Shown: piece by piece, positions 2,377-57,245 of the stretch
How the letters are laid out: every line of letters begins with the position of its first letter
Numbering within the stretch: the stretch's first letter is position 1
DNA from: Patescibacteria group bacterium
GTDB lineage: Bacteria > Patescibacteriota > Patescibacteriia > Patescibacteriales > JBAZCA01
Direction of reading: 5' to 3'
Length of the DNA: 64,000 nt
Assembly (NCBI GenBank): GCA_041671125.1
Contig: JBAZCA010000004.1
Location: forward strand, 87,029-151,028
The notes under the pieces: generated by a model
The model's database searches: none
Told to the model about the DNA's origin: nothing
What the model saw: the letters and a program-made list of their open reading frames with translations, nothing else
Program-made: the position numbers and the translations under genes

Positions 2377-3405
2377 GTGTCAGGCGTTTGCGGATTAATG
2401 ATTGAAAAACAAATGGATTTACTGAGACAAGCAAAGAAGCTGTGTGAAATATATAAAATTACGCCTTCCCGCTCCAAAGGGCAGAATTTTTTAATCAATG
2501 AAAGCGTGTACACAAAAATTGTACAGGCGGCGGATTTGGATAAAAATGACATTGTGCTTGAAGTCGGGCCGGGACTTGGATTTTTAACGGCTAAGCTTGC
2601 TAAAGCCGTGAAAAGGGTTATTGCCGTAGAACTGGACGATAAGCTGGCGCAGGCTTTAAATGATGGGTTGGACGCGCATGGAATCAGGAACGTGGAAGTA
2701 ATAAACGAGGACATACTGAAAATTAAACATTCTGTCATTCTGAGGGAGCTTGCGACCGAAGAATCTATTATAGATCCTTCGTCCCGCCCCATAAAATGTG
2801 GGGCGGAACTCAGGATGACAAAGGGCTATAAAATAGTGGCTAATTTGCCATATAATATTACTTCCATATTTTTGCGTAAGTTTTTAAGTGAGATGGAAGT
2901 TAAGCCGGAGTCAATGACATTGCTTTTACAGAAAGAGGTGGCGGAAAGGATTGTCGCCAAACCGCCCAGGATGAGCGTTTTGGCGGTTTCGGTCCAATTT
3001 TACGCTGAGCCGAAAATTATCCGGAAAGTTTCCAATGGTAATTTTTGGCCCAGTCCGAAGGTGGATAGCGCGGTGATACAGTTAAAAGTTCAAAGTGATT
3101 TCTTAAACGTCATCCTGAGCGGAGCGAAGGATCTCGTGAACGGCGCTCCTGATGCGAGATTCTTCCCCCGCGAAATGCGGGGTCAGAATGACGGAGAGAA
3201 GAAATTTTTTAGGTTAGTGAAGTTTGGTTTTAGCTCAAAGCGGAGGATGCTAAAAAACAACCTGGCGGGCGGACTGAAAATCAGTAACGAGGAAGCGGAA
3301 AAGGCGCTCGCGGCCATCGGCCTCAATCCGAAAATCCGGGCCGAAGGTCTTTCGGTTGACGACTGGATAAAATTACTTGGCGAGCTGAATAAATATATGG
3401 TATAA
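2377..3405 (+). CDS. rsmA: 16S rRNA (adenine1518/1519-N6)-dimethyltransferase RsmA/KsgA, carrying two in-frame palindromic-element insertions
   Basis: Motifs SKGQNFL, VLEVGPGLGFLT (SAM-binding), VIAVELD, ANLPYNITS. True start may be ATG 2398 or 2413. About 342 aa, versus ~260-270 typical for the family. Confidence 0.9.
   Translation: MSGVCGLMIEKQMDLLRQAKKLCEIYKITPSRSKGQNFLINESVYTKIVQAADLDKNDIVLEVGPGLGFLTAKLAKAVKRVIAVELDDKLAQALNDGLDAHGIRNVEVINEDILKIKHSVILRELATEESIIDPSSRPIKCGAELRMTKGYKIVANLPYNITSIFLRKFLSEMEVKPESMTLLLQKEVAERIVAKPPRMSVLAVSVQFYAEPKIIRKVSNGNFWPSPKVDSAVIQLKVQSDFLNVILSGAKDLVNGAPDARFFPREMRGQNDGEKKFFRLVKFGFSSKRRMLKNNLAGGLKISNEEAEKALAAIGLNPKIRAEGLSVDDWIKLLGELNKYMV
2734..2819. repeat. 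Palindromic element, family R1 (GTCATTCTGAG...CTCAGGATGAC), in-frame inside ksgA
   Basis: Terminal inverted repeat gtcattctgag / ctcaggatgac with internal hairpins (cgcccca taaaa tggggcg). Translates as SVILRELATEESIIDPSSRPIKCGAELRMT. Confidence 0.8.
3109..3192. repeat. Palindromic element, family R1 (GTCATCCTGAG...GTCAGAATGAC), in-frame inside ksgA
   Basis: Ends gtcatcctgagc / ggtcagaatgac. Translates as VILSGAKDLVNGAPDARFFPREMRGQND. Confidence 0.8.
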
Positions 3406-4289: not shown

Positions 4290-7200
4290 ATGGTTGGAAA
4301 AAAAGAAAAAAACAATAAGGTTATATCACTTTTGGTAATGATTTGTTTTTGCTTTTCAGTATCGGCGTCTGTTTTTATTTTCCCATTTTTTTCCCCTGAA
4401 GCAAAAGCGCAGAGTATAGGTCTCGAGGGAGCTACCTCGGAATTGGGGGGAATTGCCGCCGGAATGGGAATCACGGTTAAAGATCCTGGCGTAACGGCGG
4501 GGGTAGATAAAAATTATTTAGAGACTGCTACCGGCTGGCTGATGGATAGAGCGAGGGAAAATTGGAGAGATATGCTCTTTAACGCTTCCGCGCTGGCCTT
4601 TAAATCGGGTCTGCGGTTTTTTTTGAATGAGTTAGCTTACAACAGCGCCGTGTATCTCGCGACCGGCGATAAAGGGCAGACTCCGATGTTTTATACCGAT
4701 AGCTGGAAAGACTACCTGATAATGGCGGCGGACGGGGCGGCCGGCATGTTTTTAGATAAAATGGTAACGAATATCGGCAGCGCGACTGGCTGGTGGCAGA
4801 ATTTCAGCATTTGCGATCCGAATATAAACGTAAAAATTATGATCGCCCTCGGCCTCCGGCGGCAGATGTATGAGAGGCCGAGATGCACTTTTTCCCAGCT
4901 AACCGAGAATTGGGAATCCAAACTTTCCAGCCCGACTTTTTTAAATGATTTCCAGAATATGTTTAATCCCTGGGAGAGTGATATGGGAATCGCCTTAACC
5001 ATGCAGGCCGGAAGCGTTGATTACGCCCAAAAAGCGAAGGAGAATGCGACTTACCAGCGGCTGACAAACGATTTTAAGCCCATAACGGAAAAGATATCGG
5101 GATTTATAAAGAGTCCTTCCAGGGCGACGATGAAAGCCTTTGACAAGCCGATTGACGATTCGGACGCGCCGGAAAAAATATTCACCGGTTCTATGGCGGC
5201 GGATGCGATTGATATTTTTATCAGCACGTTAATCGGAAAACTGTTTGAGCAATGGCTGATGTCGGGGCTCGTATCCGAAGTGCCTTCCACTGTTGATTTG
5301 AGTAATCCGGAAATTGAAGCCTTAAATGATGATATTGAAGCCGCTAAAGAAAGATTTAGAAAATTAATAGAACCGCAGTTCGGCACGCGCGGCGATTATG
5401 ACATTTTAGTTGATTTAACATCCTGTCCGGATCCGTCTAAGCCCGGGCCGACCGATTGTGTGATAACGGAAAAATTTCGGCAGGCCGTCGCCAACCGGCT
5501 GACGGTCAAGGCGGCCATGGATCAGGGTTATCTTAATAAAAACGGAGTTTTCGGGTTCATCGCCGGAAAAAGCCTTGAGCCGAAGTTTGAAAACGGAGAT
5601 TATCCTTACCGTAGCCTCGTCATTTTAAGAAAATACCGGATTATTCCGGTCGGCTGGGAAATTGGCGCCCAGTATATAAAAATGGATAATCCTCAGGGCG
5701 GGAACGACCAAGGCAAGAATATCACTTTAAAGGAGATGGCGGAATGTTTTGAGGCTGATGACAACGTTGAAGGCTACGAAGAGCCTTGGTGTCGGGGACT
5801 CGTTGATCCGAATTGGGTCTTAAAGGCGCCTTTAAATTATTGCAAAAAGCTCGGTTACGGTCCGGAAATAATTTCAAAATCAATTACCGGCGATGGCGAT
5901 TCCAGCAAGACTAATATTTCAAGGAATGGCGATTATTGCGCTGACGAGCAGTCCTGCGTTAAAGAGAATTTTGACGGTTCCTGCCAGGTTTACGGCTATT
6001 GCTCCGAAGAGCGGAGAACCTGGAATTTTAATAACCGATCCTGCGATCCGAAATATAATACCTGCGAAATTTTTCGCTCGCGTTCCGGCAATACGGCTTC
6101 TTACCTTGAAAATACCCTGGACTATAACGGCTGTACGGCCGATAACGTCGGCTGTCTTGGTTATTGTAAGACCGAAAATTATGTTCCCGGCGTAAAAAAT
6201 ACGTCTTTTGTAATTGAGCAGGATTATGACGCCGGAGGAGGAAAGATTAGAACCAGGAAATGGGAACTCCCGGCGACTTTCCAGAATAATCAGACCGCCG
6301 CGGAATTTTATGGTTACCGGGACGCCCATTCGCTAATGGATAACCAATGGATTGTAAAAGCTGACCGGAGCGAATTTTTCATTCACTATAATACGGTTAC
6401 CGGAATATCCAGCATCGGCTGGCTCCATGACAAACCGCAACTGGTAAAGTGTCAGGCTTATATAAAACATCCGGAAGATCCTTATGACTCTCAGAGTGAA
6501 AATGACTGGTGTGTTGATTCCGCCAATCCAGGAGCCTGCGGTAACGGAGAAAATTGGCAGACGGCCGACCCTTCAGCTAACTGTTTTGATTTTGTCGAGT
6601 ATTGTAAGACCCATGAAGACGACAGATCTGACGAGGTAAATTGCGACGGCGGGGAAGCGGCGCTCGCGTTTAGTAAAATTACGGCCGGTAACAAAGTCGC
6701 GGTAAGGGATGACGCTGGAGACGCTAATAATAGCGGAATAGGAAATGAAATAAAACAAGGAGACAACTGGGAGGAAGGATGGACTAAAAAAAATACCGAC
6801 GGCGGCATGATTGAGATGCCGTCCGGGAACTGGGAAGTTGAGATCGCTCCGACGCTTACAGCCGGAATAAGCGAATTGGTTTTTGCTTATGAAGGAGGAA
6901 TGCTGGACGCGAGCCAAGGGTTTAAAGTGGTTTTGGGCGGAAGTAATTTGCCGTTTAGAATTAAGTCCAGCCCGGACACTTTAAGCGGAGAATGGCAATG
7001 CGAAGGAGCTAAAGATAAAATTTATTTTGACAAGGACGCGGAAAAATGCGATTCCGGAAACGAGGGTTGCCATGAATTCATAAGAACCAAAGCCGGAATC
7101 GGGGCGAACCTCCTTATCAATTCCGGGTTTGAGGATTATCTTGATATCGGCGGATGGGATAAATGGGGAAAAGCCGATTCTGATCGGAGAAGCGGGAGTA

Positions 7201-10200
7201 GCGCTTTGGCATTAAAAGACGGCGGCGTCAGCAAGGACGATGTTTCCCCGGGTCCGTGGGAAGTCGGCGAATATTTTACGCTTTCTTTATACGCGAAGAA
7301 TTGCGCGGGTCTTAAAGCTAAACTGGGAGACGCGGAGAGTGAGACCGGACTAAGCGGTTCTTCAGACTGGCAGAGGTTAATACTCAGCGCGAAAATGGAT
7401 GGTACGGGAATTGAAATAGCAATCGGGTTAAAAGAATACGCCGCCGGATGCGTTATAGACGACATAAAACTGGAAAGAAATGACAGCGCGAGCGACTGGA
7501 ACGAATATGGGGGGCCGGGAAAAATTTACGAAAAACTGATACCGGCTTATTTTGAAAACAGCGCGGAAAATGAAAACAGGAGCCATTGCTATGAAGATGT
7601 TAATCCGGACGACGGAGACGGTCTGGATTATACGTTCAGTAAAGACGCTTTGCCGGAATGTTCCAATTTTGCGAGAAAGTGCAATCCGGACGAAGCGAAT
7701 TGCGAATTATACACATCGATTCGGACTAAAGAAGCCATACCGGCGAAGATTTCAGCTAATGATTTATGCCCGTCAACCTGCGTTGGGTATGATATGTTCA
7801 TCCAAAAAGAAACCGGTTTTGATTCCGCGCGGCCCGAATACTTTATACCGAAAACCGCGAGAACCTGCGGTTATGTTTCAGCCGGATGCGATGAATTTAC
7901 CAATCTTGATGAACTGGAAAAAGGAGCGGAAAAAAAGGAGTATTATTCGGAGTTAAGGCAGTGCATAAAGCCCGCCGAGGCGGGCAGTCCCGGCTGTAAT
8001 GATTTTTACACCTGGGAAGGCTCAAGCGAAACCGGGTTCCAGCTTAAAGTTTTTCGGCTGAAGCAGGATGACGACGGCGAGGCAGGAGATCTATATAGCG
8101 GAGATCCGGCAATTACCGGAGATGATTCGGATAATTGCGGTGAAACCAGTTACGCCGACGGAACAGGAGGATCCGACTGCCGCCAGTTCTATAACCGCCA
8201 GGGCGGAATTTCTTACCACCTGTATTTAAAAACTATATCTTGCTCGGACGATTGCCATCCATACCGGCGGACGGAAAATAATACTTTAGATTCCGAGGCC
8301 AGGTGCAAAGAAGAATGTCCTGACTCAAACCAGGCCTGCGCCTGTTCAACAGACTGCGGAGCGGCCACGGGTAAGTTAAGCTGTAAAAAATCTAATACCG
8401 AGTATATTTATTGTAAAAACGGCGGAACCTGGCGAAATGACCATAATGCCTGCGTTTATTCGGCTATTCCGGGAGAAGGAAGAGCCTGCTCGGCCAGCCA
8501 GGCCGGTTGCCGCGAATATAACGGCAATAACGGCGCGAATGTCCGAACCATATTTTCCGATAATTTTGAAGACGGAACCGGTGATTGGACCGCGAACAAA
8601 GGGACGCTAGAGATTTCCGGCGAAGCGGTTTTTGTCGGCGAACATTCGCTCAAAGCTACCGTGAGCGGGACCGAAGTTGAACTTGTGAAACCGGTCGGAA
8701 CTTTGCTCGCGGATGATGATGAGAGTTCCTACATCTTAACTTTTACCGCCAAAAAATTAAAAGGAGGATCCGGCGGGCAGTGGATTGTTGACAATGGCAT
8801 CTATTTTTCAGACGGAACTGATAAGTCTTACTTTGAAATTGACGAGGAAACTAAAGCCGGCTTGGCCGGAGACGGAGACTGGCTTTTATATAAATTTAAT
8901 TTGAAAAAGCTTGATCATGCCGAAACCGACAAGGAAATTTTAGTAATTAAAGCTAATCAGGGATATTATATTGATAATATTAAACTCACGCAGACCATTG
9001 ACCGCTACTATCTTATTAAAAATTCCTGGAATACGCCCTTAGAATGTGATAACAAGATTGATGATCCTGAGGGGCAAAAGGCCTATGCGAGCGGAAGCGC
9101 CGGATGTAAAACAGCACTTCCGGATAGTGACGGAACTGTGAGGGCCTGCTTCCCCCAGGAAATGTTAAACTGCGACCAATATAAGGATCGGGAAAAGATT
9201 GATTACTACCTGAAAAGTTTTTCCGCGCTTTGCCAGGATTCGGCCGTCGGGTGCGAATTAATGGTTGATACCCATAATTCAACCAATCCGGAAGCAATGA
9301 GCTATGAAGACGGGGAAATAAGCGTGCCGGCCGATAATTTTATCTACGCGGTTTATGATAAGAAAAAAACCTGCAACGCGGCGGATAAAGGCTGCGAGCG
9401 GCTCGGCAAACCCTATAGTTATTCAGGCGATTCGGTTTATCAGAATGAATTTTTAAAGAATGACCCGGACGCGTATCCGAAGATTCTTTGCTCATCGTCC
9501 GAAGAAGGCTGCGAAGAATGGATCGCGACGGAGAGCGATAAAAATTATTTTAAGGATCCGGGCGACCAGGTCTGCGAATACCGGCAGGCTTTGGGATTGG
9601 GCGCGGGCTGGTGGAAAAAACAGGTAAAGAGATGCGACGACGGAAGCGGTGTCGGATCGTCGGTTAACGGAAAAATTGACGCGGAAATTAACGCCGAAGG
9701 CAATTCGGTCAAGGCTTCGGAGAATCAGATCTGCGTTGACACCGGCGGTTGCGGACGCACCGGAATAAAATGCGATTCTGACGAAGTTTGCGGAGCTTTT
9801 AGAACCTGCCTTGAAGGAGAGTGCCGCTATACCTGTATTCTGGACGCTAACAATTACGGTTGCCAGACTGATGCCAAAAAAGCTCCTAAAACCATAGGTT
9901 ATCCCGGAGCGCCAATAGAACAGCCGGACGAAGAAGAGATTAAAGACGTTAATGACATCGACAGAGACGGCAATACAGATGAAATAATTAAAACTATTAA
10001 ATGGGCCGGAGCCTGCCCGGCTTCTGAAGCAGGTTGTTCGGAATATATTGATCCGGTGAGCCGGTTTTTAACTAACGTTGTTTTTAATAGTGATTTTTCC
10101 CAGAACGTGGACAACGCGAACGGACCGGACGGCTGGAATTGCGACGCGAGGGAGGAAGATTGTTCGCAAGAACTGCAATTGTCTCCGAGCGCTCTGTATA

Positions 10201-13200
10201 TTATATCGGGCGAAAATCTTGCCGGCGGAAACGTAAGCTTAAAGGAAAAAGCGGCAGCGGCAAAAGATATTCATGAATTGATTGAAGGGGCCGGTAGCGG
10301 AGGAGCTAATTATTTCAAAGACGGGGAAAATTCAATATCTCTTGATTTGTCCGGTAATATACGGAAAAGCAAACGCTTTTACGTGTCGGGTAATGATATA
10401 ACCAACGGGACTCTTTCGGTAAAGGGCAAGGCGGACAATTCTACGCTGGAAATTAAGGAAGCGGCGATTAGCTACCAGCTTAAAAGGAATATTGATAAAA
10501 CTTCCTGCAACGGGCTGGTAAACTTTGACAACGGGTGCGTTTTGTTCAATGAAAGGACTTACGCCGGAGCCGGCTGGGCAGGACTCACCTTAAACGCCGA
10601 TTCCTCAAAAGACGGAGAAGCGCCGAAAACCGATTCGCCGGTAAATGCCAACGTTTTAATTAAGGTCGCTCCCGACCGGGTCTGCAATGAATGGCTGGCC
10701 TGCCGATCAGCCGTCGGCCTCGGAATAAAAAATGCGAGCAATTCCGAAGAGCAGGCTTGCTTTAATATTGGCACCTGCAACCAGATGGACGACAGCGGCA
10801 AATGCGTCAGTTTTTCCATTTCGGATGATGAAAGCGCAATGGAGGCGAAAGGAATCAAAGGCGCGCTAAGCAATGTTTCGGAATTCGCGAACCGTTCTGG
10901 TTATTCAAAAGTCGGAATAAAAACGGTTGACGACCCGGGGATGAAAGGCTACTTTGCTTTTGGCGATATGAATCAGATCGGCGAAGTGTCCACTGTTCCT
11001 AACGGAAATTTTGAAATTTATGGCAGTAATAAATATCCGATCGGCTGGTCTCCACAGAAAGGAAGTTGGAACATGAACCTTTTCTCGGCAATTAACAATC
11101 CTTACGCGGCTCAGGCTGAAGGAGGAATTTCCGGCCGGGGCGGAATCGGTTATCCGGTTGAAGGCGTAAGCTTACTTAAATATTCGGCCGCCATCCATCC
11201 CAAAGTCGGGCCGACTTCGGAATATATAGATGTTGAAAGAGGGGAATATGTTCTTAGCGCCAGGATTAATACTCTTGGTTTAAAATCCGTTGATTCCGCG
11301 ACAGTCAGAGCGGTTGTCGGGCTGGAATTTTTTAACTCTCAGGGAAACAGTCTGGCCTCCTCCTTAGAGCCTATTAACATGGACATGGCCGGAGACTGGA
11401 AGCTGAATGTGGCAAAATTTAAAGTGAGCGGATCAGCCAAAAGAATAAAACTTAACCTTACCAGTAAAATCGGGAATGATTATTGCCAGTCCGCCGTCGA
11501 TCCGGTCTTGAGATTATCAGACGGCGTTTCCAATATTGACTGTAACGAAGGCGCCTGGATGACTGTCGGGCCCGAAGACAACGGCGAAATTCAGAGCGAT
11601 TCATCGGGCCCGGAAATAAAGATAAGAAGCGATAATCAGACTCCGTCCGATTGCGCCACTGAAAAATGGAAGGCTGAAATACAGGACGCCAGCGGCGGCT
11701 GGCATGAAGTTTATTCGGGTGATTCCTGCAATTTAGAAAACGGCAGTAATTTTTTAATAAACATGGAAGATTTCGGGCTTTCGTCCATAAAAAATGTCCG
11801 GGCGACCTGTACCGGTACCGGATCGGATGAATGCGTGTCCTGCCCGGATATTAGCGATTGGCATTTTATCAGCCTGGCCCCGGCATATAATATTTCCAAC
11901 TCAAAGTGCTCGGGAAATATTTACATAGACGACATAAAAATAAAACCGGCGCTTGCCGCTCGCCCGGAATGGAACATAACCCAGTCCTGTCGGCTCTATC
12001 CGCAGTCCGATTCCCTTTCCTGCGATTACTTTAACGATTCAGGCCTCCGGGAAAAAGGCCTTTACGGCTACTGCCTCCAGTACGACCGGTCTCCGGGCTC
12101 GCCGGAAAATTGCCTTCAGTGGTGGCCGGTTGATAAGGTAAAAGGCGACGGTATAGAAGAAGGCGCCGGGTATCAAGGCAGATATCCGTTGTATTATACG
12201 ACTGACATAGAGGATATAAGCCATTGCTCAAGTTATGAATTAGTCGGAGTGAAAAAAAATCAAGTTTTTACGACTCCAGCCATGCACTGTGATAGCTTCG
12301 GCGATGAGTGCGATGACGATCGCGTAGAAGTAATTTTTGACGCAGTAAGAATGGAAAAGAGACTAAATCCCGGGCCATTTCCAGGGTTTACATTCAGTTG
12401 TTCCGAGGATGGGGTTAATATGCAATATACTGGAGCCGGACTTAATCCCGTATATTCAGATTCAACATATGATTGGTTTTGTACTTCTGATTCTTTTGTT
12501 CCCGAACTGATTGAAATAAACGCGCCTTGCGGAGCTGAGGCAATCTTTGATCCAGGTCCGCGCAAACCATGGTATAAGTTTATTGCTACTAAGATTATTC
12601 AGGTTGTTACTCCGTCAGGACAGAATAAATATTGGAGTGGTAGAGTTTATAATGGAAGCACTTTTAACTATAGTTGCAACGCAGGCTTGCCTGACGGTTT
12701 ATTGCCGGATCCTAACTATAGGAATTGCGAATATGGATATGACTATCCTCCTTTCGGCTCTCTTGTTTATCCTTACCCTTCGGCTAATCCTTATGAATGG
12801 GACGGCAAAGGCGATTTAGGTATCCAGCCATTATATTATGAACTTCCGGATACGGAAAATTACTCCGCGCCTTATCAGCCGAGAACCGGACAGCTAAGTA
12901 CGGAAGACAATATCAAAAACCTTTTTGCCCAAAGCTACGGCAACTGGCAATGGGACGGGAGTAATTATGTTCCATACAATTCCAGCTGTGTCGGCGGAAG
13001 TAATGACAAGAAAGTCTGTATAATTGACGCGGATTGTCCGGGAGGCGCTTGCACCGGCAATAATTGGACTTCGCCGGGAATAGTTTGTCCGACTGTTAGC
13101 GGAGAGATATTAAGACCGGAATTTAATTCAGCCGCCCCAAGCGCCGACCTTTGCGCTGTCCCTCCCCTGATCTATAACATAAAAGTCAACGCTACTTCAA

Positions 13201-13607
13201 CGGTTGACGTAGAAATCATAAAGAACGGCTACGTCAACTTCACTTTTAACAGCCATATTGACTCGCAGCAGCTGCCCCTCACTATGATTTCGGTTGACTG
13301 GGGAGATTTAGAAAACACCATAATAACCGGGGTGGAAATGCGCGACCGCCAGGATCCGGTTAATCCGCATTCGCTCTATCACCTGTATGATTATTGGGAT
13401 TTAAAAAGAAAGGCGGCGGATACGAGCCCGAGGGGTCTAGACGTTTCGGATATTGACTGCCCGGCGGGAGGAAATTTTTGTCTCGTAAGGCCGAGAATAA
13501 AAATCATGGATAACTGGGGTTGGTGCACGAGCGGAACTACCGGCGACAATTGTCCTAGCAACGGCTATATTGAATTTTCGCATTGGATTGTTGTAAAGGA
13601 GAGGTGA
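4290..13607 (+). CDS. Giant (3105 aa) Cys-rich secreted/surface protein with several beta-sandwich (CBM4/9- or laminin-G-like) modules
   Basis: Uninterrupted 9.3-kb ORF with an N-terminal hydrophobic signal/anchor (ISLLVMICFCFSVSASVFIFPFF). Cys-rich throughout. Recurrent N-x-x-F-E type module starts (NLLINSGFEDY, FSDNFEDGTGDW, VPNGNFEIYG). Ends with TGA. Confidence 0.8.
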   Translation: MVGKKEKNNKVISLLVMICFCFSVSASVFIFPFFSPEAKAQSIGLEGATSELGGIAAGMGITVKDPGVTAGVDKNYLETATGWLMDRARENWRDMLFNASALAFKSGLRFFLNELAYNSAVYLATGDKGQTPMFYTDSWKDYLIMAADGAAGMFLDKMVTNIGSATGWWQNFSICDPNINVKIMIALGLRRQMYERPRCTFSQLTENWESKLSSPTFLNDFQNMFNPWESDMGIALTMQAGSVDYAQKAKENATYQRLTNDFKPITEKISGFIKSPSRATMKAFDKPIDDSDAPEKIFTGSMAADAIDIFISTLIGKLFEQWLMSGLVSEVPSTVDLSNPEIEALNDDIEAAKERFRKLIEPQFGTRGDYDILVDLTSCPDPSKPGPTDCVITEKFRQAVANRLTVKAAMDQGYLNKNGVFGFIAGKSLEPKFENGDYPYRSLVILRKYRIIPVGWEIGAQYIKMDNPQGGNDQGKNITLKEMAECFEADDNVEGYEEPWCRGLVDPNWVLKAPLNYCKKLGYGPEIISKSITGDGDSSKTNISRNGDYCADEQSCVKENFDGSCQVYGYCSEERRTWNFNNRSCDPKYNTCEIFRSRSGNTASYLENTLDYNGCTADNVGCLGYCKTENYVPGVKNTSFVIEQDYDAGGGKIRTRKWELPATFQNNQTAAEFYGYRDAHSLMDNQWIVKADRSEFFIHYNTVTGISSIGWLHDKPQLVKCQAYIKHPEDPYDSQSENDWCVDSANPGACGNGENWQTADPSANCFDFVEYCKTHEDDRSDEVNCDGGEAALAFSKITAGNKVAVRDDAGDANNSGIGNEIKQGDNWEEGWTKKNTDGGMIEMPSGNWEVEIAPTLTAGISELVFAYEGGMLDASQGFKVVLGGSNLPFRIKSSPDTLSGEWQCEGAKDKIYFDKDAEKCDSGNEGCHEFIRTKAGIGANLLINSGFEDYLDIGGWDKWGKADSDRRSGSSALALKDGGVSKDDVSPGPWEVGEYFTLSLYAKNCAGLKAKLGDAESETGLSGSSDWQRLILSAKMDGTGIEIAIGLKEYAAGCVIDDIKLERNDSASDWNEYGGPGKIYEKLIPAYFENSAENENRSHCYEDVNPDDGDGLDYTFSKDALPECSNFARKCNPDEANCELYTSIRTKEAIPAKISANDLCPSTCVGYDMFIQKETGFDSARPEYFIPKTARTCGYVSAGCDEFTNLDELEKGAEKKEYYSELRQCIKPAEAGSPGCNDFYTWEGSSETGFQLKVFRLKQDDDGEAGDLYSGDPAITGDDSDNCGETSYADGTGGSDCRQFYNRQGGISYHLYLKTISCSDDCHPYRRTENNTLDSEARCKEECPDSNQACACSTDCGAATGKLSCKKSNTEYIYCKNGGTWRNDHNACVYSAIPGEGRACSASQAGCREYNGNNGANVRTIFSDNFEDGTGDWTANKGTLEISGEAVFVGEHSLKATVSGTEVELVKPVGTLLADDDESSYILTFTAKKLKGGSGGQWIVDNGIYFSDGTDKSYFEIDEETKAGLAGDGDWLLYKFNLKKLDHAETDKEILVIKANQGYYIDNIKLTQTIDRYYLIKNSWNTPLECDNKIDDPEGQKAYASGSAGCKTALPDSDGTVRACFPQEMLNCDQYKDREKIDYYLKSFSALCQDSAVGCELMVDTHNSTNPEAMSYEDGEISVPADNFIYAVYDKKKTCNAADKGCERLGKPYSYSGDSVYQNEFLKNDPDAYPKILCSSSEEGCEEWIATESDKNYFKDPGDQVCEYRQALGLGAGWWKKQVKRCDDGSGVGSSVNGKIDAEINAEGNSVKASENQICVDTGGCGRTGIKCDSDEVCGAFRTCLEGECRYTCILDANNYGCQTDAKKAPKTIGYPGAPIEQPDEEEIKDVNDIDRDGNTDEIIKTIKWAGACPASEAGCSEYIDPVSRFLTNVVFNSDFSQNVDNANGPDGWNCDAREEDCSQELQLSPSALYIISGENLAGGNVSLKEKAAAAKDIHELIEGAGSGGANYFKDGENSISLDLSGNIRKSKRFYVSGNDITNGTLSVKGKADNSTLEIKEAAISYQLKRNIDKTSCNGLVNFDNGCVLFNERTYAGAGWAGLTLNADSSKDGEAPKTDSPVNANVLIKVAPDRVCNEWLACRSAVGLGIKNASNSEEQACFNIGTCNQMDDSGKCVSFSISDDESAMEAKGIKGALSNVSEFANRSGYSKVGIKTVDDPGMKGYFAFGDMNQIGEVSTVPNGNFEIYGSNKYPIGWSPQKGSWNMNLFSAINNPYAAQAEGGISGRGGIGYPVEGVSLLKYSAAIHPKVGPTSEYIDVERGEYVLSARINTLGLKSVDSATVRAVVGLEFFNSQGNSLASSLEPINMDMAGDWKLNVAKFKVSGSAKRIKLNLTSKIGNDYCQSAVDPVLRLSDGVSNIDCNEGAWMTVGPEDNGEIQSDSSGPEIKIRSDNQTPSDCATEKWKAEIQDASGGWHEVYSGDSCNLENGSNFLINMEDFGLSSIKNVRATCTGTGSDECVSCPDISDWHFISLAPAYNISNSKCSGNIYIDDIKIKPALAARPEWNITQSCRLYPQSDSLSCDYFNDSGLREKGLYGYCLQYDRSPGSPENCLQWWPVDKVKGDGIEEGAGYQGRYPLYYTTDIEDISHCSSYELVGVKKNQVFTTPAMHCDSFGDECDDDRVEVIFDAVRMEKRLNPGPFPGFTFSCSEDGVNMQYTGAGLNPVYSDSTYDWFCTSDSFVPELIEINAPCGAEAIFDPGPRKPWYKFIATKIIQVVTPSGQNKYWSGRVYNGSTFNYSCNAGLPDGLLPDPNYRNCEYGYDYPPFGSLVYPYPSANPYEWDGKGDLGIQPLYYELPDTENYSAPYQPRTGQLSTEDNIKNLFAQSYGNWQWDGSNYVPYNSSCVGGSNDKKVCIIDADCPGGACTGNNWTSPGIVCPTVSGEILRPEFNSAAPSADLCAVPPLIYNIKVNATSTVDVEIIKNGYVNFTFNSHIDSQQLPLTMISVDWGDLENTIITGVEMRDRQDPVNPHSLYHLYDYWDLKRKAADTSPRGLDVSDIDCPAGGNFCLVRPRIKIMDNWGWCTSGTTGDNCPSNGYIEFSHWIVVKER

Positions 13608-18156: not shown

Positions 18157-18262
18157 TGAAGCATGAATTATGAATCAAGGAGGCAAGATAAAATCATTCA
18201 CTGATTTGAACGCGTGGAAAGAGGGTCATAAACTGGTACTAATGATTCGTTATTCGTAATTC
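18151..18262. repeat. Palindromic element, family R2 (GAATTATGAAT...ATTCGTAATTC arms) enclosing a four-helix-bundle gene fragment
   Basis: Left arm gaataatgaagcatgaattatgaat; right arm attcgttattcgtaattc. Same arm vocabulary as the elements in recG and pilD. Confidence 0.65.
18170..18259 (+). pseudogene. Truncated four-helix-bundle protein (23S rRNA intervening-sequence protein family) fragment, 29 codons
   Basis: Translates MNQGGKIKSFTDLNAWKEGHKLVLMIRYS*. The K-S-F-x-D-L-x-x-W motif matches the N-terminus of the four-helix-bundle family, but only about 25% of normal length is present. Confidence 0.4.
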
Positions 18263-18271
18263 AGTTGGAAT

Positions 18272-18904
18272 ATGTCGGAACTAATCCCCTACGAAAACAT
18301 TAAAACTAAAATTTACCTGATCCGGGGCCAAAAGGTTATGATTGACCGCGATTTGGCTGTGCTTTACGGGGTTGAGACGAAGAGACTGAATGAACAAGTA
18401 AGGAGAAATATTAAAAGATTTCCTTCGGATTTTATGTTTCAGCTTTCGAGAAAAGAATATGAAAACTTGATATTCCAATTTGGCATTTCAAGTTTAGAAA
18501 TTGGCGAAGGTGAAGTTAACTTGAAGTCGCAAAATGCGACCTTGAACGAGAAAGTGGGCGAAAATTCGCAAATTTCAAGGTCGCAAAATGCGACCTTGAA
18601 AGACAGAAGAGGTTCTAATGTTAAATATCTGCCTTACGCCTTTACCGAGCACGGTGTGGCTATGCTCTCCAGCGTTCTAAAAAGCGAGCGAGCCGTAGAA
18701 ATAAATATCGCGATAATCCGGACATTTATTAAATTGCGTGATTTTGCCTTAAACTACAAGGCGCTGGCGGAAAAGATTAACGAACTGGAAAGCGGCTATA
18801 AAAATCATGATAAAAAGATCGTAGAAATATTCGCGGCGCTAAGGCTGATGGCAAGGAATGACGGGAATGAAATAAAAGAGGAAATCGGATTTAAGGCTGT
18901 CTGA
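18272..18904 (+). CDS. ORF6N-domain (KilA-N-like) DNA-binding protein
   Basis: N-terminus IYLIRGQKVMIDRDLAVLYGVETKRLNEQVRRNIKRFPSDFMFQL and YLPYAFTEHGVAMLSSVLKSERAVEINIAIIRTF are typical ORF6N signatures. Internal duplicated KSQNATL segment. Confidence 0.75.
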   Translation: MSELIPYENIKTKIYLIRGQKVMIDRDLAVLYGVETKRLNEQVRRNIKRFPSDFMFQLSRKEYENLIFQFGISSLEIGEGEVNLKSQNATLNEKVGENSQISRSQNATLKDRRGSNVKYLPYAFTEHGVAMLSSVLKSERAVEINIAIIRTFIKLRDFALNYKALAEKINELESGYKNHDKKIVEIFAALRLMARNDGNEIKEEIGFKAV

Positions 18905-19954: not shown

Positions 19955-19973
19955 AAATTAAAAATCAAAATGT

Positions 19974-20077
19974 AAAATTAATTCGTCATTCTGAGGCCGA
20001 AGGCCGAAGAATCTCGTGATAATAGCTCTGTTCACGGGATCCTTCGCTACGCTCAGGATGACGAGAAAAAATTTGTC
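19974..20077. repeat. Palindromic element family R1, intergenic copy (104 bp, identical to 22833..22936)
   Basis: Core gtcattctgaggccgaaggccgaagaatctcgtgataatagctctgttcacgggatccttcgctacgctcaggatgac, plus shared flanks. Confidence 0.9.
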
Positions 20078-20106
20078 ATTTTGATTTTTGATTTTTACAT
20101 TTTAAA

Positions 20107-21417
20107 TTGACTATGGAATACGACATCAAAGATATAAAACTGGCCGCTGGCGGGAAGAAGAGGATTGAGTGGGCGGAAAAAGACATGCCGGTTTTAGCAG
20201 CGATTAAAAAAAGATGGGCCAAGGAGCAACCTTTTAGAGGCGTCCGCATGTCAGCCTGCCTCCATGTTACCGCCGAGACCGCCAACCTGGTACGGACCCT
20301 AAAGGAGGGAGGAGCGGAAATATTACTTTGCGCGTCCAACCCGTTATCCACCCAGGATGACGTGGCCGCTTCGCTCGTTAAAGACTATGGCGTTCCGGTT
20401 TTTGCTATTTGCGGGGAGGATAAGAAATCATATTATTCGCATCTGGTCGCGGCCCTGGATTTTTCCCCGAATGTTACCATGGACGACGGCGCTGATTTAC
20501 TGCACCTTATACACACTGACTATAAAAAGCTGGCCGGAAAAATTTATGGCAGTATGGAAGAAACTACGACCGGAGTAATCCGCTTAAAAGCTTTGGAAAA
20601 AGAAAAAAAACTTTTAGTTCCGATCATGGCGGTGAACGACGCAAAAACTAAGAACATGTTTGATAATCGCTACGGCACCGGACAATCCACCCTGGACGGA
20701 ATTATCCGGGCGGCTGATATCCTTATCGCCGGCAAGACCGTTGTCGTCGCCGGTTACGGCTGGTGCGGTCGGGGGTTTGCCTCGCGCTCCCGGGGCATGG
20801 GCGCCAAAGTGGTTGTTACCGAGGTGGATAAAATTAAAGCTTTAGAAGCGGCTATGGACGGCTTTTCGGTTATGCCCATGCGCGAAGCCGCGAAGATTGG
20901 CGACCTGTTCTGCACCTTAACCGGCGACATTAATGTTTTAAGGGGCGAGCATTTTAGGCTGATGAAGGACGGAGCTATGATCTGCAATTCCGGGCATTTT
21001 GACGTGGAAATCAATATTCCGGAACTGAAAAAAATGGCGAAAAAAATAAATAAGAACGTAAGGAATTTTGTTGATGAATATGTGATAGAAGTCAACAAGT
21101 CAACAAGTCAACAAGTCAACAAGTCAGAGAGCCGGAAGGTTAAAAGTATTTATTTGCTTGGCGAGGGGAGGCTAATTAATCTGGCGGCGGCTGAAGGGCA
21201 CCCGGCTTCGGTAATGGATATGAGTTTCGCGACTCAGGCTCTCGCTTCGGAATATGTCATAAAAAATAAGGGAAAACTGGAAAATAAAGTCCATAATGTG
21301 CCGGTTGAAATAGAAGACTGGATTGCGGATCTTAAGCTGAAGTCCATGGGGATTAGCGTGGATAAGCTGACGACTGAACAGGAAAAATATCTTAAGAGTT
21401 GGGAGATAGGAACGTAG
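20107..21417 (+). CDS. ahcY: Adenosylhomocysteinase
   Basis: Motifs DDGADL, ETTTGV, NAD-binding [12 protein letters not shown], and [23 protein letters not shown]. Confidence 0.92.
21091..21126 (+). repeat. Tandem octanucleotide repeat (GTCAACAA) x4.5 inside ahcY
   Basis: gtcaacaa repeated four times plus gtca. Encodes [12 protein letters not shown] within an insertion relative to the usual YxLxDGRxIYLL region. Confidence 0.9.
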
Positions 21418-21421
21418 ATAG

Positions 21422-21523
21422 AATTTTTAATTTTTAATTTTTGAATTTTTAAAGTCCAAATTTTTCAACAAAAAAATCAAGGCATAGTTACTTAAAAATT
21501 ACAAAATTAAAAATTAAAAATTT
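21422..21523. repeat. Long AT-rich inverted repeat (about 30-bp arms) between ahcY and metK
   Basis: aatttttaatttttaatttttgaatttttaa pairs with ttaaaaattacaaaattaaaaattaaaaattt. Confidence 0.7.
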
Positions 21524-21616
21524 AATTTAAGGAAGACTAGTGGATGAGGATAGTGGGTTTTAATAGTTTTTGCTATTTACTTACTGTCCTTATCTCCTGG
21601 CTTCCTAAAAAATCGT

Positions 21617-22780
21617 ATGGAAGAGAACATCAGGCTCATTACTTCCGAGTCCGTTACCGAGGGCCATCCGGATAAAGTCTGCGACCAGATTTCGGACGGC
21701 ATTTACGACGAGATGTTAAAACAGGATCCGGACAGCCATGCCGGAATTGAGTGTTTTTGCACCACCGGTTTGGTGCTCGTCGGAGGGGAAGCTAGGACAA
21801 AAGCTTACGTGAACATTGAACAGGTAGTCCGGAACGTTTTGCGCGACATCGGTTATGATAAACAGGAGTTTGGATTCTGCTGTGATGACGTTGGCGTAAT
21901 TGTAACTTTGCACGAGCAGAGCCCGGATATCGCCCAAGGGGTAGACGAAGGGTCGGGCGAGCATGAAGAGCAGGGCGCCGGCGACCAGGGGTTGATGTAC
22001 GGCTTTGCCTGCAATGAAACCCCGGAATTAATGCCTTTGCCGATAATTTTAGCCCACAAGCTTACAGCCAAATTGGCCGAGGTAAGGAAAAACGGAATTC
22101 TGTCTTACTTAAGGCCGGACGGAAAAAGCCAGGTAACTGTGGAATACCATGATGGCAAGGCTACCAGGGTGGAGACCGTTGTCATTGCCGCCCATCATAG
22201 TGAACAGGTAGATACTCCGACTTTACGCGCTGATATCAGGGAAAAAGTTATCCGCCCGATTTTGGGCGATTTGATGGATGAAAAAACTAAAGTATTCATC
22301 AATTCAACCGGACGCTTCGTAATCGGCGGACCGCCGGCCGACGCCGGACTCACCGGACGGAAAATAATCGTTGACACTTACGGCGGAGTCGGGGCGCACG
22401 GCGGCGGAGCATTTTCCGGAAAATGCGCGACTAAGGTTGACCGGAGCGGCGCTTACATGGCGCGCTATGTCGCGAAGAACGTCGTGGCGGCCGGCCTCGC
22501 TGATAAATGCCAGTTGCAGGTAGCTTACGCGATCGGCGTGGCCGAACCGGTCGGAATTTACGTCAACACTTTCGGCACCAACAAAATATCGGAAAATAAA
22601 ATTATAGAACTCGTGAAAAAACATTTTGATTTCCGGCCTAAGCAGATTATAGAAAAATTAAACCTAAAAAGGCCGATCTACCGGAAAACCGCCGCTTACG
22701 GGCATTTCGGAAGAAATGACAAAGACTTTACCTGGGAAGCCGTTGACATGGCTGAGGTTTTAAAGAAGGATAGCTGTTAA
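21617..22780 (+). CDS. metK: S-adenosylmethionine synthase
   Basis: Motifs [42 protein letters not shown]. Confidence 0.95.
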
Positions 22781-22832
22781 GATAGTTTAAACATTAAAAA
22801 CATCTAAACAGAAATTAAAAATTTAAAATGCA

Positions 22833-22936
22833 AAAATTAATTCGTCATTCTGAGGCCGAAGGCCGAAGAATCTCGTGATAATAGCTCTGTTCACGGGATC
22901 CTTCGCTACGCTCAGGATGACGAGAAAAAATTTGTC
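22833..22936. repeat. Palindromic element family R1, intergenic copy (104 bp, identical to 19974..20077)
   Basis: Base-for-base identical to the copy upstream of ahcY. Confidence 0.9.
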
Positions 22937-22963
22937 TTTTGATTTTTTATTTTTGCATTCGTT

Positions 22964-28692: not shown

Positions 28693-28721
28693 ATAAGGTT
28701 TATTTTGTGTATTTCAAAATT

Positions 28722-28847
28722 TTCAATTATCAATGATCAATTTTCAATGAATTTTCAATGTTCCAATGAGCTAAATTAAACTTTCATAATTTAAAAATTG
28801 TTTAATTGAAAATTCATTGATCATTGTAAATTGAAAATTGATAATTT
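28722..28847. repeat. Long AT-rich inverted repeat (about 38-bp arms)
   Basis: ttcaattatcaatgatcaattttcaatgaattttcaat pairs with attgaaaattcattgatcattgtaaattgaaaattgataattt. Confidence 0.7.
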
Positions 28848-39381: not shown

Positions 39382-39697
39382 AGGCCTTTTTTCAAAAGGT
39401 TGAAACTAGCTAGACTGGTCCTCGTTCCGGGTAATCGGGACGGGAGTCGCTCTAGCAATATAAATTAAAATATTTAAAAAATATTTCGCCCGGAAGAAGC
39501 TCTCTTCCCCGAAAGAAATATTCCCGTTATAATATACCATATCGCGAAAAATTGCAAGAGGGGATATAATTTCATGCGTTCGGAAATAATAAATTGATAT
39601 TTATTATTTCCTCACTTTATTCAATTATAAAGCCAAACTTATAAAGAGGCAATAGTATTTTTAGAAAAAGAAGCGGGATTTTTTTAGGATTAAAATT

Positions 39698-41857
39698 ATG
39701 CTTGAAGCGGGTAGTAATATTTTGGATCTAAGCGGGGTTGGGGAAGCGACCGTGCGGGAATTAAAAAAGGTTGGCGTGGAAAAAATCCGTGACCTCTTAT
39801 TTTATTTTCCTTTCCGTTATGATGATTTTTCCCGGACAATTCCCATTGCCAAAATTAAAATTGGTGAAAACGCCAATATAATCGGCCAGATTGAACTCTT
39901 AGAAGCGAGGCGCAGTCCGCGGCGGCGCGCGCATGTAACAGAAGCGCTTATCCGGGACGCAACCGGCAGTCTCAGGGTTGTTTGGTTTAACCAGCCTTTT
40001 ATCGCCCGCCAATTCGCGGCCGGTGACACGATTTCCATCGCCGGAAAAGCGTCCGAAGACTACGGCGGAGCCGTGATGATTTCTCCTTTTTACGAGAGAG
40101 CCGGAACAGTTATCCACAGCCGGGAAAAATTCGCGGCAAAAAAACCGCCAGGAGGAACTCTTTCTTACTTTCATACCCGGGGACTGGTTCCGGTTTATCA
40201 TCTTTCCGGAAAATTAAACCAGAAGCGGTTAAGGTCGCTGATGGGCAAGGCCATTTATATCGCGGAAAAATTTCCCGATTGGGTTCCGCTGGAAGCGAGA
40301 GGAAGAAAGTATTTATCCCTGCCGGAAGCTGTTAGGCTCATTCATTTTCCAAAAAATCAAAAGGACGCCGCGAGCGCTAAAAAACGTTTCTCTTTCCAGG
40401 AGTTATTTTTAGTCCAGCTCCGGTCGCAAATGGCGAGAAGGGAGATGGATTCGTGCCTCGCCCATCGGCTGAAATTTTTTGAAAAAGAGACCCGCGATTT
40501 CGTCTTTAGCCTGCCGTTCCGGCTTACTGACGCCCAGAAGAAAGCGGCCTGGGAAATTTTACGCGACCTGGAAAAAGAGCGGCCGATGGCCAGGCTTTTG
40601 ACCGGAGACGTCGGGTCAGGTAAAACTATAGTGGCGGCCATCGCTATACTGAACGCGGTTTTAAACGGCAAGCAGGCGGTTCTTATGGCGCCGACCGAGA
40701 TTCTCGCCAAACAGCATTTCGCGACGCTCAGCGGGCTGTTTTCGGGACTGGACTTTAAAATCGGGTTGGTTACTTCGGGGGAGAAAATTACGAATTACGA
40801 ATTACGAATTACGAATAATGAATTAAAGGCTAAGAAGAGAAAGGAAACCCATGATTCATTATTCATAATTCGTAATTCACAGGTAATTATCGGCACGCAC
40901 GCCTTGCTTGAGGAAAAAGTGGCATTTAACAATTTGGCTCTGGCGATAATAGACGAACAGCACCGTTTCGGCGTGGAACAGAGAAAAGCCCTGATTGAAA
41001 AAGCGACGGCCAGGGGCATTAGAAAAAAGTTCGCCCCGCATTTTCTTTCCATGACCGCCACGCCCATCCCGCGCAGTCTCGCGCTTACCCTATACGGCGA
41101 ACTGGAAGTTTCCGCAATCAATGAAATGCCTAAGGGGAGAAAAAAAATCCTTACCCGGGTAATTCCCGAAGAAAAACGAGAAGCGGCTTATGGGTTTATC
41201 CGTAAAAAGGCGGACGAAGGACGGCAGATATTCGTTATCTGCCCGCTTATTGACCCTTCCGACCGGCTCGGAGTTAAGTCAGTAAAAGAAGAATACGAAA
41301 AATTGAACAAGCTGGTTTTTCCGGATTTGAAAGTCGGGCTTTTGCACGGCCGGCTAAATTCGCGGGAAAAAGACAGGGTGATGAGAGATTTTTCTTCCGG
41401 CAAAATAAAAGTACTCGTTTCTACTTCGGTAATTGAAGTCGGAATTGATATTCCCAACGCGACCGTTATGATGATAGAAGGCGCCGACCGCTTTGGTCTC
41501 GCGCAGATCCATCAGTTCCGGGGAAGGGTTGGGCGGGGCGCTCACGAATCATTTTGTTTCCTTTTTACCGACAGTGCGGCGGAAAAAACCCTGGCCCGGT
41601 TAAAAGCGGTGGAGACCGAAAATGACGGGTTTAAGCTCGCCAGGATGGATCTTGAACTCCGCGGCCCGGGCGAAGTTTACGGAATTGCCCAAAAAGGTTT
41701 TCCCGAATTTCGCGTAGCTTCGCTTTTTGATTACGAGCTTATGAGCGAGGCTAAAGCGGCGGCGGAGAAAATAATGAAAATTGACCCGAGCCTTAACCGC
41801 TGGCCGCTATTGAAGCGCGAACTCGGAGAATGGAAAAAAGGAACGCATATGGAGTAG
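39698..41857 (+). CDS. recG: ATP-dependent DNA helicase RecG with an in-frame palindromic-element insertion
   Basis: Wedge/OB N-terminus, helicase motifs GDVGSGKT, DEQHRFG, MTATPIPRS, QFRGRVGRG. Confidence 0.9.
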   Translation: MLEAGSNILDLSGVGEATVRELKKVGVEKIRDLLFYFPFRYDDFSRTIPIAKIKIGENANIIGQIELLEARRSPRRRAHVTEALIRDATGSLRVVWFNQPFIARQFAAGDTISIAGKASEDYGGAVMISPFYERAGTVIHSREKFAAKKPPGGTLSYFHTRGLVPVYHLSGKLNQKRLRSLMGKAIYIAEKFPDWVPLEARGRKYLSLPEAVRLIHFPKNQKDAASAKKRFSFQELFLVQLRSQMARREMDSCLAHRLKFFEKETRDFVFSLPFRLTDAQKKAAWEILRDLEKERPMARLLTGDVGSGKTIVAAIAILNAVLNGKQAVLMAPTEILAKQHFATLSGLFSGLDFKIGLVTSGEKITNYELRITNNELKAKKRKETHDSLFIIRNSQVIIGTHALLEEKVAFNNLALAIIDEQHRFGVEQRKALIEKATARGIRKKFAPHFLSMTATPIPRSLALTLYGELEVSAINEMPKGRKKILTRVIPEEKREAAYGFIRKKADEGRQIFVICPLIDPSDRLGVKSVKEEYEKLNKLVFPDLKVGLLHGRLNSREKDRVMRDFSSGKIKVLVSTSVIEVGIDIPNATVMMIEGADRFGLAQIHQFRGRVGRGAHESFCFLFTDSAAEKTLARLKAVETENDGFKLARMDLELRGPGEVYGIAQKGFPEFRVASLFDYELMSEAKAAAEKIMKIDPSLNRWPLLKRELGEWKKGTHME
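40787..40878. repeat. Palindromic element family R2, in-frame inside recG
   Basis: Left arm attacgaattacgaattacgaattacgaataatgaat; right arm attcattattcataattcgtaattc. Translates ITNYELRITNNELKAKKRKETHDSLFIIRNS. Confidence 0.8.
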
Positions 41858-41998
41858 ATGAAAAAATTTTAAATTTTCAATTATAAATTTTAAATTAATA
41901 AGTGAAATGAATCTCAGCTTTTGTAAGATAATTTAAAATTTGTCATTTAAAATTTAATTAAAATTAAAAATTTTAAATTTAAAATTGTTTAGGTTTAA

Positions 41999-54284: not shown

Positions 54285-54453
54285 GTGGATAAGTTTAATC
54301 AATCCTTCAATCTTCAATTTACAATTTTAAAGTTGTTATTAATTGCAGATTGATAATTGAAGGATTGAAGATTGATTATTAATTATTCGCGATTGTTAAT
54401 TTAATTCCTGGGATTAAATGAATAATCGCGAGCCTAACGAGAGGGGGTGAATT

Positions 54454-57179: not shown

Positions 57180-57245
57180 GTTTTTAGGCGTTCCGTCGGT
57201 CGGTTTAATGTTATAGTATTATGTTTAACTACTATTAATAAATTT

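Follow-up and report, generated by a model that had tools for sequence, protein, structure and literature searches.

Palindromic repeats that lie in-frame in protein genes have been described in Rickettsia as the Rickettsia palindromic elements (RPE; Ogata et al. 2000 Science 290:347 and 2002 Genome Res 12:808, as cited in PMC10969869 and PMC3733652), and two of them, RPE-6 and RPE-4 of R. conorii, correspond to CGTC-1 and CGTC-4 in the survey of repetitive extragenic palindromic (REP) sequences by Di Nocera, De Gregorio and Rocco (2013, BMC Genomics 14:522, PMC3733652), which separates REPs into a GTAG- and a CGTC-tagged superfamily. According to that paper, CGTC REPs carry the tag CGTC, often TGTC (with a CCTC variant allowed), a stem of 8-9 bp that starts with A-T, T-A, a loop of 4-5 nt and an unpaired 3-nt tail with the consensus CCA. 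They occur mostly as dimers of the type labelled HH, with often structured spacers of 20-100 nt, are located downstream of genes in mainly intergenic positions where unidirectional or convergent gene pairs are favoured, and "apparently lack a dedicated transposase". Additional file 3 of the paper reports in-frame intragenic CGTC units or dimers encoding 20-30 residues in many proteins, among them tRNA synthetases, helicases and the 16S rRNA methyltransferase RsmE, as well as an N-terminal dimer (residues 1-12) in the R. conorii dimethyladenosine transferase, of a kind that the authors say may be extragenic. Here we describe two palindromic repeats of comparable architecture that are located in-frame in ksgA/rsmA of a Patescibacteria group bacterium (assembly GCA_041671125.1), together with two intergenic copies in the same 64,000-nt stretch of DNA (contig JBAZCA010000004.1, positions 87,029 to 151,028 of the forward strand). 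This stretch is referred to below as the window, and positions are given in its coordinates unless another locus is named:

2398-3405, plus strand: ksgA/rsmA, encoding the 16S rRNA A1518/A1519 dimethyltransferase (PF00398 and PDB KsgA matches), host of elements 1 and 2
2734-2819, no strand assigned: element 1, 86 nt, covering ksgA residues 113-141 in the loop that precedes motif IV (NLPYNI); site 1
3109-3192, no strand assigned: element 2, 84 nt = 28 codons, at ksgA residues 238-265, in the inter-domain linker; site 2
19985-20062, no strand assigned: intergenic copy, 78 nt, between a PfkB kinase gene and ahcY, inside an AT-rich palindrome
22844-22921, no strand assigned: intergenic copy, 78 nt, between metK and an EamA transporter gene, identical to 19985-20062

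The open reading frame (ORF) at 2377-3405 (+) encodes KsgA/RsmA, with 335 aa from the ATG at 2398 or 330 aa from the ATG at 2413 that is used by NCBI, and its product matches Pfam RrnaAD (PF00398) with E=2.4e-51 and B. subtilis KsgA (6ifs) with E=2e-35. Taken with the number of element termini and the folding of the elements, this identity of the host confirms the claim of a first-pass annotation of the window that ksgA contains two palindromic elements, at 2734-2819 and 3109-3192. The terminus GTCATYCTGAG, with at most one mismatch, was found 11 times in the 64-kb window against 0.70 expected, a count that none of 100 shuffles reached, and 8 of the 11 matches are the ends of the four elements. 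All eight arms of these copies are paired, the folding energies amount to -35 to -43 kcal/mol (z -3.8 to -7.3 relative to shuffles), and element 1 is the second strongest local 90-nt fold of the 64 kb (z -5.4). Termini and inner blocks are common to all four copies, and therefore the genic and the intergenic ones belong to one family, as the annotation had proposed, except that the latter start at 19985 and 22844 and not at 19974 and 22833. The tag reads TGTC in element 1 and CGTC in the other three. No consistent target-site duplication was detected at the four copies, the empty sites being too diverged for a firm call.

Element 1 is composed of a 5' arm (2734-2766, with the hairpin unit at 2737-2764), the spacer CTATTATAG and a 3' arm (2774-2819) that carries an additional 8-bp distal hairpin, CCGCCCCA/TGGGGCGG. 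Element 2 has its hairpin units at 3112-3132 and 3159-3189, separated by a spacer at 3133-3158, and is flanked by the codons AAC and GGA with exactly 28 codons between them. The ksgA frame is open through both elements with no stop, and GTC is a codon in the frame used. The initial description of both as insertions of ~85 bp that bring in neither a stop nor a frameshift was thus right about the open frame, but the 86 nt of element 1 are not divisible by three: its peptide, VILRELATEESIIDPSSRPIKCGAELRMT, takes up 29 codons (87 nt), and the filled site exceeds the insert-free ortholog by 90 nt. Tryptic peptides expected from the insert-bearing protein include ELATEESIIDPSSRPIK, CGAELR, DLVNGAPDAR and FFPR.

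The DNA of the three closest relatives (loci L001, L002 and L004), with orthologs 78-82% identical, was then compared with the window:

P0004 (L001), 277 aa: site 1 empty, site 2 empty
P0002 (L002), 299 aa: site 1 with element 1 (65 nt), site 2 empty
P0003 (L004), 314 aa: site 1 with element 1 (68 nt), site 2 with an unrelated 20-nt perfect palindrome, CTTGCCTGCCGGCAGGCAAG

Exactly the segments singled out by the first-pass annotation are therefore polymorphic, with neither present in P0004, element 1 alone in P0002 and P0003, and element 2 private to the window genome. Since element 1 occupies the same junction and has the identical spacer CTATTATAG in the window, P0002 and P0003, it represents one orthologous insertion. 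The alignments show it as a gain in an ancestor common to P0002, P0003 and the window genome, and element 2 as a recent gain in the window genome only. Even within the orthologous element 1 the distal side hairpins vary: the 3' arm of the window copy is longer by 21 nt, and the 5' arm of P0003 carries another hairpin (+3 nt). The lengths that result, 86, 65 and 68 nt, each leave a remainder of 2 on division by three. Identity of the window to L002 is 92% in the element core, 78% over the gene and 57% at third codon positions. An element of the same family with the same 5' arm and a different spacer also occurs at the identical nucleotide junction in the more distant KsgA P0017 (~64% identical; L245 390-545).

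An assembly artefact is unlikely, because the identical protein has been deposited twice and element 1 recurs in independent assemblies from other samples. The same KsgA (P0001, named RsmA) is found in MFA6393890.1, in MFA6928308.1 and in one JGI record, the MFA6393890.1-type RsmA coming from a 158,957-bp contig of a Patescibacteria metagenome-assembled genome.

At the protein level, site 1 is the loop preceding motif IV (NLPYNI) and site 2 the linker from the methyltransferase domain to the C-terminal helical domain, as the first-pass annotation had stated and as both an AlphaFold2 model and the alignment of homologues support. The model of the window KsgA, built on an ortholog alignment (A2), has a mean predicted local distance difference test (pLDDT) score of 83 with 205 residues at or above 90. 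The core scores above 90, and the sole internal stretches of low confidence, residues 112-140 and 237-264, are the two inserts, which appear as low-confidence loops (pLDDT 42-61 for element 1 and 38-50 for element 2) on a confident KsgA fold. Foldseek comparison of the model with B. subtilis and T. thermophilus KsgA gave a target TM score of ~0.85, in keeping with preservation of the fold, and the ortholog alignment shows little or no variation in motif I (GPGLG) and motif IV (NLPYNI). KsgA homologues have variable loops at both positions, B. subtilis KsgA having ~19 residues at site 1. The protein had been estimated to be 70-80 aa longer than usual; relative to the closest insert-free ortholog, P0004, the actual difference is 53-58 aa, with site 1 contributing 30 aa and site 2 contributing 23 aa. 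To call ksgA essential, as was also done, is too strong: KsgA is universally conserved, yet it is dispensable in E. coli.

Species-representative genomes were scanned for GTCATYCTGAG-N45-75-CTCAGRATGAC, which yielded 126 copies in at least 120 genomes. The family occurs in most bacterial phyla, the matches listed including Acidobacteriota, Bacteroidota (including cultured Hymenobacter and Mucilaginibacter), Chloroflexota, Firmicutes, Alpha-, Beta-, Gamma- and Deltaproteobacteria, Planctomycetota, Verrucomicrobiota, Omnitrophota, Nitrospirota, Gemmatimonadota, Synergistota, Armatimonadota and Patescibacteria. Moreover, the exact 5' arm of element 1 (GTCATTCTGARGGAGYTTGCGACYGAAGAATC) is present in at least 120 metagenome contigs with GC contents of 0.32-0.60. 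Beyond the termini imposed by the search, the inner block GAAGRATC...GATYCTTC is present in nearly all 126 genomic copies. Each copy consists of two inverted hairpin units with their tags outward and a 9-45-nt spacer between them, an orientation found for 230 of 274 arms, with most apparent singles having a degenerate partner. An arm of ~26 nt (for example GTCATCCTGAGCGAAGCGAAGGATCT) comprises, in order, a YGTC tag, a 5-bp stem ATYCT/AGRAT, tandem G.A/A.G pairs, a variable distal hairpin closed by G-C and a CTN tail. Immediately 5' of GTC, 196 of 252 arms have a T, 46 a C, 6 a G and 4 an A, and 181 of 219 arms have a CTN tail as against 5 with CCA. Within an arm, the terminal Y covaries with the inner R in 214 of 219 cases, while agreement between the two arms of one element is found in only 78 of 126 copies, the rest having T.G or C.A in the long hairpin. 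The repeat unit is thus the arm and not the whole palindrome. The sequence of the distal hairpin is free, with a length of 5-33 nt and GCGNAGC (any N, 3-nt loop) as the commonest form, and at least three closing pairs occur in 51% of 102 distinct distal segments as compared with 2.4% of shuffles.

As regards genomic context, crude ORF calls place copies between unidirectional (35), convergent (16) and divergent (12) gene pairs, at a median of 60 nt past the upstream stop, and for heterodimers between co-oriented genes the transcribed strand carries U.G in 9 cases and C.A in 7, which says little about selection on the RNA. Long open frames hold 23 of the 126 genome copies and only 2 of 126 metagenome copies with the element-1 5' arm. 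The lengths of the genomic copies are uniform modulo three (43/42/41). Frames 0, 1 and 2 through the family copies are open in 44%, 0% and 44%, respectively, giving a mean of ~29%, which equals the chance expectation for ~26 codons and argues that the family is not adapted for coding. An 83-aa concatenate of element peptides, compared with a protein database, matched two small hypothetical ORFs only.

Considering these properties, we treat the window repeat as a probable unlisted family or variant inside the CGTC/TGTC-tagged REP superfamily, placed there by its architecture. Compared with that superfamily (PMC3733652), the YGTC tag, the AT-first stem and the tag-outward dimers are alike (we equate HH with tags outward, since CGTC dimers read VIPAKAGI...DSRLRGND), and so are the dispersed distribution, mostly intergenic and downstream of genes, the in-frame dimers that encode 20-30 aa and the failure to find a transposase. 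A conserved 3-nt position follows the stem here too, with another sequence. The encoded peptides of CGTC-1 to -4 (VIPAKAGI, VIPGLDPGI, VIPVLDTGI and VILDGRNIEF/RHSELVSGS) differ from VILSEAKDL/VILRELATEES and ILRFAQDD of the window family. CGTC REPs were reported from 5 phyla in a study that did not include Patescibacteria, whereas the window family is found in far more phyla, Patescibacteria included. The comparison with RPEs made in the first-pass annotation is therefore apt and closer than was supposed, as the same architecture includes RPE-4 and RPE-6.

As represented in the cited sources, RPEs likewise are palindromic repeats located in-frame in unrelated housekeeping genes of a bacterium with a reduced genome, at positions compatible with the protein fold. 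They differ in host (Rickettsia vs. Patescibacteria) and in sequence family, the link being provided by RPE-4 and RPE-6 as CGTC-4 and CGTC-1 only. Further, RPE-1 is ~150 bp long and has a conserved encoded peptide whereas the window family has no coding bias, and expression of RPE-bearing proteins has been shown while the ksgA inserts are presumably translated. The REPIN/RAYT system (Bertels and Rainey 2011, PMC3337134), in which RAYT is the REP-associated tyrosine transposase, resembles the window family in that its repeated unit is a doublet of inverted REPs capable of folding as a single long hairpin. However, the REPIN tag is GTAG and not YGTC, no RAYT gene was found beside the copies or in the window, and REPINs are species-specific while the window family is nearly invariant across phyla. 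Intragenic miniature inverted-repeat transposable elements (ERIC, Correia, BOX; Delihas 2007; PMC10969869) are also small, non-autonomous inverted-repeat elements with occasional in-frame fusions; terminal inverted repeats are present in the window elements, but these are built of two REP-like hairpins and are not simple terminal inverted repeats. Literature searches with the consensus sequence and the typical peptides of the family did not retrieve it, the 11-mer terminus returned primer noise only, no work on Patescibacteria repeats was found, and a 2025 REP survey mentions neither the family nor Patescibacteria. The suggestion that this family and lineage were undescribed consequently holds within these searches, although the kind of phenomenon had already been published (PMC3733652).

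Clustering of the ORFs within 1.5 kb of the 126 copies revealed no recurrent neighbouring gene in 120 loci, and the largest clusters consisted of generic regulators, ABC ATPases and epimerases. A profile for RAYT/TIRYT that was derived from a published alignment had no match in the window and two non-adjacent matches in 1.75 Mb of element-bearing DNA (L220 and, weakly, L204), and the stronger one, in L220, is 1.7 kb from the element and not flanked by arms. A link to RAYT or another transposase was rejected on these grounds. No parent insertion sequence with matching ends was detected and no transposase recurs near the copies. A plasmid or phage origin was likewise rejected, with one partial plasmid match and zero phage matches. 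Finally, Rfam covariance models run on the elements (cmscan, E up to 10) gave no match and no ribozyme or intron signature. The motif CUGAG-GCCGAAGGCC-GAAG of the intergenic copy comes near a minimal hammerhead but is without the UGA of the CUGAUGA...GAAA core, and with the Rfam null result this candidate was discarded.

The two sites in KsgA are hot spots in Patescibacteria for expansion by several hairpin families. A homologue search returned thousands of Patescibacteria KsgA sequences, and among the 120 listed, which range from 271 to 374 aa, 98 could be parsed and were used for counts. Expansions of more than 8 aa were found at site 1 in 64 of these (65%) and at site 2 in 35 (36%), compared with 1-3 in each of three control segments. 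The inserted peptides can be recognised as hairpin translations: the window family is present in P0008 and P0017; CGTC-1-like inserts read VIPAKAGI...SCLRRNDK (at both sites of P0095) or HSREGGNP...WIPDQVRDD; a sister family, GTCATTGCGAG...CTCGCAATGAC, is found in P0071, P0105 and P0120; GC-rich perfect hairpins encode PLLSKERE, PLYKGG and SASGG/PAGRQ; and AT-rich heptamer palindromes encode NYELR and FQFPI. Hairpin origin was confirmed on the DNA for L245 and L246. Site 1 of the KsgA P0071 gene (L246 1301-1480) is occupied by the sister family, which has the same architecture with the stem ATTGC/GCAAT (TGTCATTGCGAG...CTCGCAATGACA), and its site 2 (L246 1715-1897) by three tandem GC-rich perfect hairpins in-frame, folding at -89.7 kcal/mol over 183 nt. 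P0095, as judged from its peptides, carries the CGTC-1-type sequence VIPAKAGILGDQ..QDSCLRRNDK at both sites and so mirrors, in an independent lineage, the two-site occupancy seen in the window.

Those checks suggested in the first-pass annotation that could be applied favoured its interpretation, which is thereby supported. Cumulatively, these findings suggest, with a probability that we put at roughly three in four, that the ksgA segments are copies of a dispersed, non-coding REP-dimer (REPIN-like) repeat that are tolerated as two loops of the protein. The copies would persist since their positions, a loop ahead of motif IV and the linker between domains, are permissive. They would add a multiple of three bases and be free of stops in the frame used, so that ksgA would still be transcribed and translated through them, the predicted outcome being two disordered surface loops of ~29 and ~28 residues. 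Their in-frame status would reflect selection on a conserved gene, which filters random insertions, and not a coding adaptation of the element, because ~10% of random intragenic insertions are expected to preserve the frame and be stop-free (1/3 x ~0.29). Gene conversion between copies may keep the core uniform while swapping distal hairpins, which would account for both the high nucleotide conservation and the exchanged hairpins.

Several observations weigh against tolerated insertion of such a repeat. The element core is far more conserved than the third positions of the host gene (92% vs. 57%), and something beyond tolerance therefore acts, whether gene conversion, a function at the nucleic-acid level or re-insertion. 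An element is present at the element-1 junction of the distant P0017 and P0008 (62-64% identity) while the same junction has none in the closer P0004 (81%) and P0005-7 (70%), which implies either repeated precise loss or site-specific re-insertion, and random insertion followed by a filter does not by itself predict such recurrence at one junction. Neither a target-site duplication nor a mobilising enzyme was identified, so that mobility is deduced from dispersal and polymorphism only, and retention of the segments in mRNA and protein is presumed. The fit to the published CGTC architecture is also imperfect: the window family has 5 Watson-Crick pairs plus tandem G.A pairs and a variable distal hairpin instead of 8-9 uninterrupted pairs (with the G.A pairs counted there are 9 stacked positions, and hence the overall size is similar to that of a CGTC stem although the definition remains unsatisfied), its commonest loop is a 3-nt GNA and not 4-5 nt, and its tail is CTN and not CCA.

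In another reading, the YGTC hairpin dimer would be more than selfish DNA, namely a pan-bacterial structured element kept nearly invariant by a conserved trans-acting factor that acts on single-stranded DNA or RNA, and hairpin elements of Patescibacteria (the window family and the CGTC-1-like, GTCATTGCGAG-type, GC-rich and AT-rich heptamer palindromes) would systematically seed protein loops by repeatedly colonising the same permissive or structurally targeted sites, such as the two in KsgA, possibly with a role at domain boundaries. What leaves room for such a factor is that the arm, with its tandem G.A pairs and covarying distal hairpin, is kept at 32-60% GC in more than 15 phyla, and that it is conserved well above synonymous sites even inside a coding region. 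We regard this proposal as rather unlikely and favour the tolerated REP-dimer copies over it.

It is also conceivable, if unlikely, that the hairpins matter in RNA and that the encoded residues are incidental or absent, either because the segments are removed or processed (by RNase III, as in the intervening sequences of rRNA, or by some form of splicing) or because they serve as regulatory mRNA structure, such as a pause at the domain boundary or a decay site. The very stable folds (-37 to -43 kcal/mol), the nucleotide conservation in excess of that at synonymous sites, the location of site 2 exactly in the inter-domain linker and the perfect hairpin stacks found at KsgA site 2 elsewhere in Patescibacteria (L246, -89.7 kcal/mol over 183 nt) are all consistent with this. 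Processing, however, is not what one would expect from the open frame kept by all element-bearing orthologs and the indels between copies that are multiples of three (+21 and +3 nt), keeping in mind that these orthologs were found as full-length proteins and thus form a biased sample. It also lacks any Rfam family, ribozyme or intron signature, and regulation by RNA structure finds no counterpart in a preference for U.G over C.A on the transcribed strand (9 vs. 7).

All four copies of the window touch genes of the S-adenosylmethionine (SAM) cycle, and the element could accordingly be seen as a cis-regulatory motif of SAM metabolism, which we consider very improbable. Pfam confirms the gene identities: the gene of the SAM-dependent KsgA holds two copies, ahcY has one upstream, and the fourth lies between metK and the EamA-type transporter gene. 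From the end of the copy at 19985 it is 45 nt to the listed start of the ahcY ORF (TTG at 20107, with the first ATG at 20124). On the other hand, no SAM or S-adenosylhomocysteine (SAH) riboswitch or other Rfam family matched, no neighbour family recurs in 120 other genomes, a riboswitch is not expected in-frame within a coding region, and the intergenic copies are one duplicated unit of ~135 nt and hence represent few independent events. The SAM/SAH riboswitch, a candidate prompted by these neighbours, was rejected on the Rfam result and the lack of gene association in other genomes. The unit itself is a near-identical direct repeat (19963-20105 and 22822-22960) that contains both intergenic copies and brackets ahcY (20107-21417) and metK (21617-22780).

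The least credible explanation, that KsgA has here old, variable, lineage-specific loops whose palindromy is accidental, or else that the assembly is at fault, can appeal to the length variation of KsgA homologues here (~19 residues at site 1 in B. subtilis) but hardly survives the differences in presence and absence among the closest relatives, the recurrence of the sequence between genes of the window and in no fewer than 120 genomes and 120 metagenome contigs, and the independent assemblies with the same insert.

Other repeats were noted in the window and in relatives. Both intergenic GTCAT elements are central within AT-rich palindromes of ~7-nt repeats, and long intergenic palindromes of this AT-rich type are located at 21415-21529, 28717-28847, 41869-41957 and 54299-54368. 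Two AT-rich heptamer palindromes lie in-frame in genes: one, of the GAATTAC type, at 40792-40878 within the DEAD domain of RecG (ORF 39665-41854, +; peptide EKITNYELRITNNELK), and the other at 57520-57596 in a prepilin peptidase gene (ORF 57180-58055, +), where it separates the A24 N-terminal domain (33-113) from the peptidase domain (144-247). A 21-nt hairpin unit, GTCGCAAAATGCGACCTTGAA, is repeated at 18526-18594 (ORF 18260-18901, +) within a larger fold of -34 kcal/mol. The LeuRS gene of L002 (1060-3681) carries at 2470-2499 a decayed half element in-frame (KKVRSFADAQDDKE), and other repeat-derived inserts in it read SARGGSASGG and KSQIPNPKSQTNSKIQNPNFKI. Directly 3' of ksgA plus a 247-aa ORF is an ORF of 3105 aa (4290-13607, +), syntenic in L002 (>3110 aa), where no Pfam match is on record for it.

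In-frame palindromic repeats have already been described in Rickettsia and other bacteria, and the ksgA copies are a new instance of them. They carry the occurrence of palindromic repeats inside genes beyond Rickettsia, its classical home, into the Candidate Phyla Radiation, whose genomes are also reduced. They also led to the identification of a widespread, apparently unnamed sequence family of the CGTC/TGTC REP type, which raises the question of how a REP with no associated transposase is copied and conserved. For annotation, such repeats account for Patescibacteria orthologs of conserved enzymes that differ by tens of residues at fixed positions, and peptides such as VILSEAKDL, ILRFAQDD and LRMT can be flagged as repeat-derived and not as functional motifs. 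For protein evolution, the series of KsgA genes with filled, empty and differently filled sites represents a compact natural experiment on the tolerance and gain of loops.

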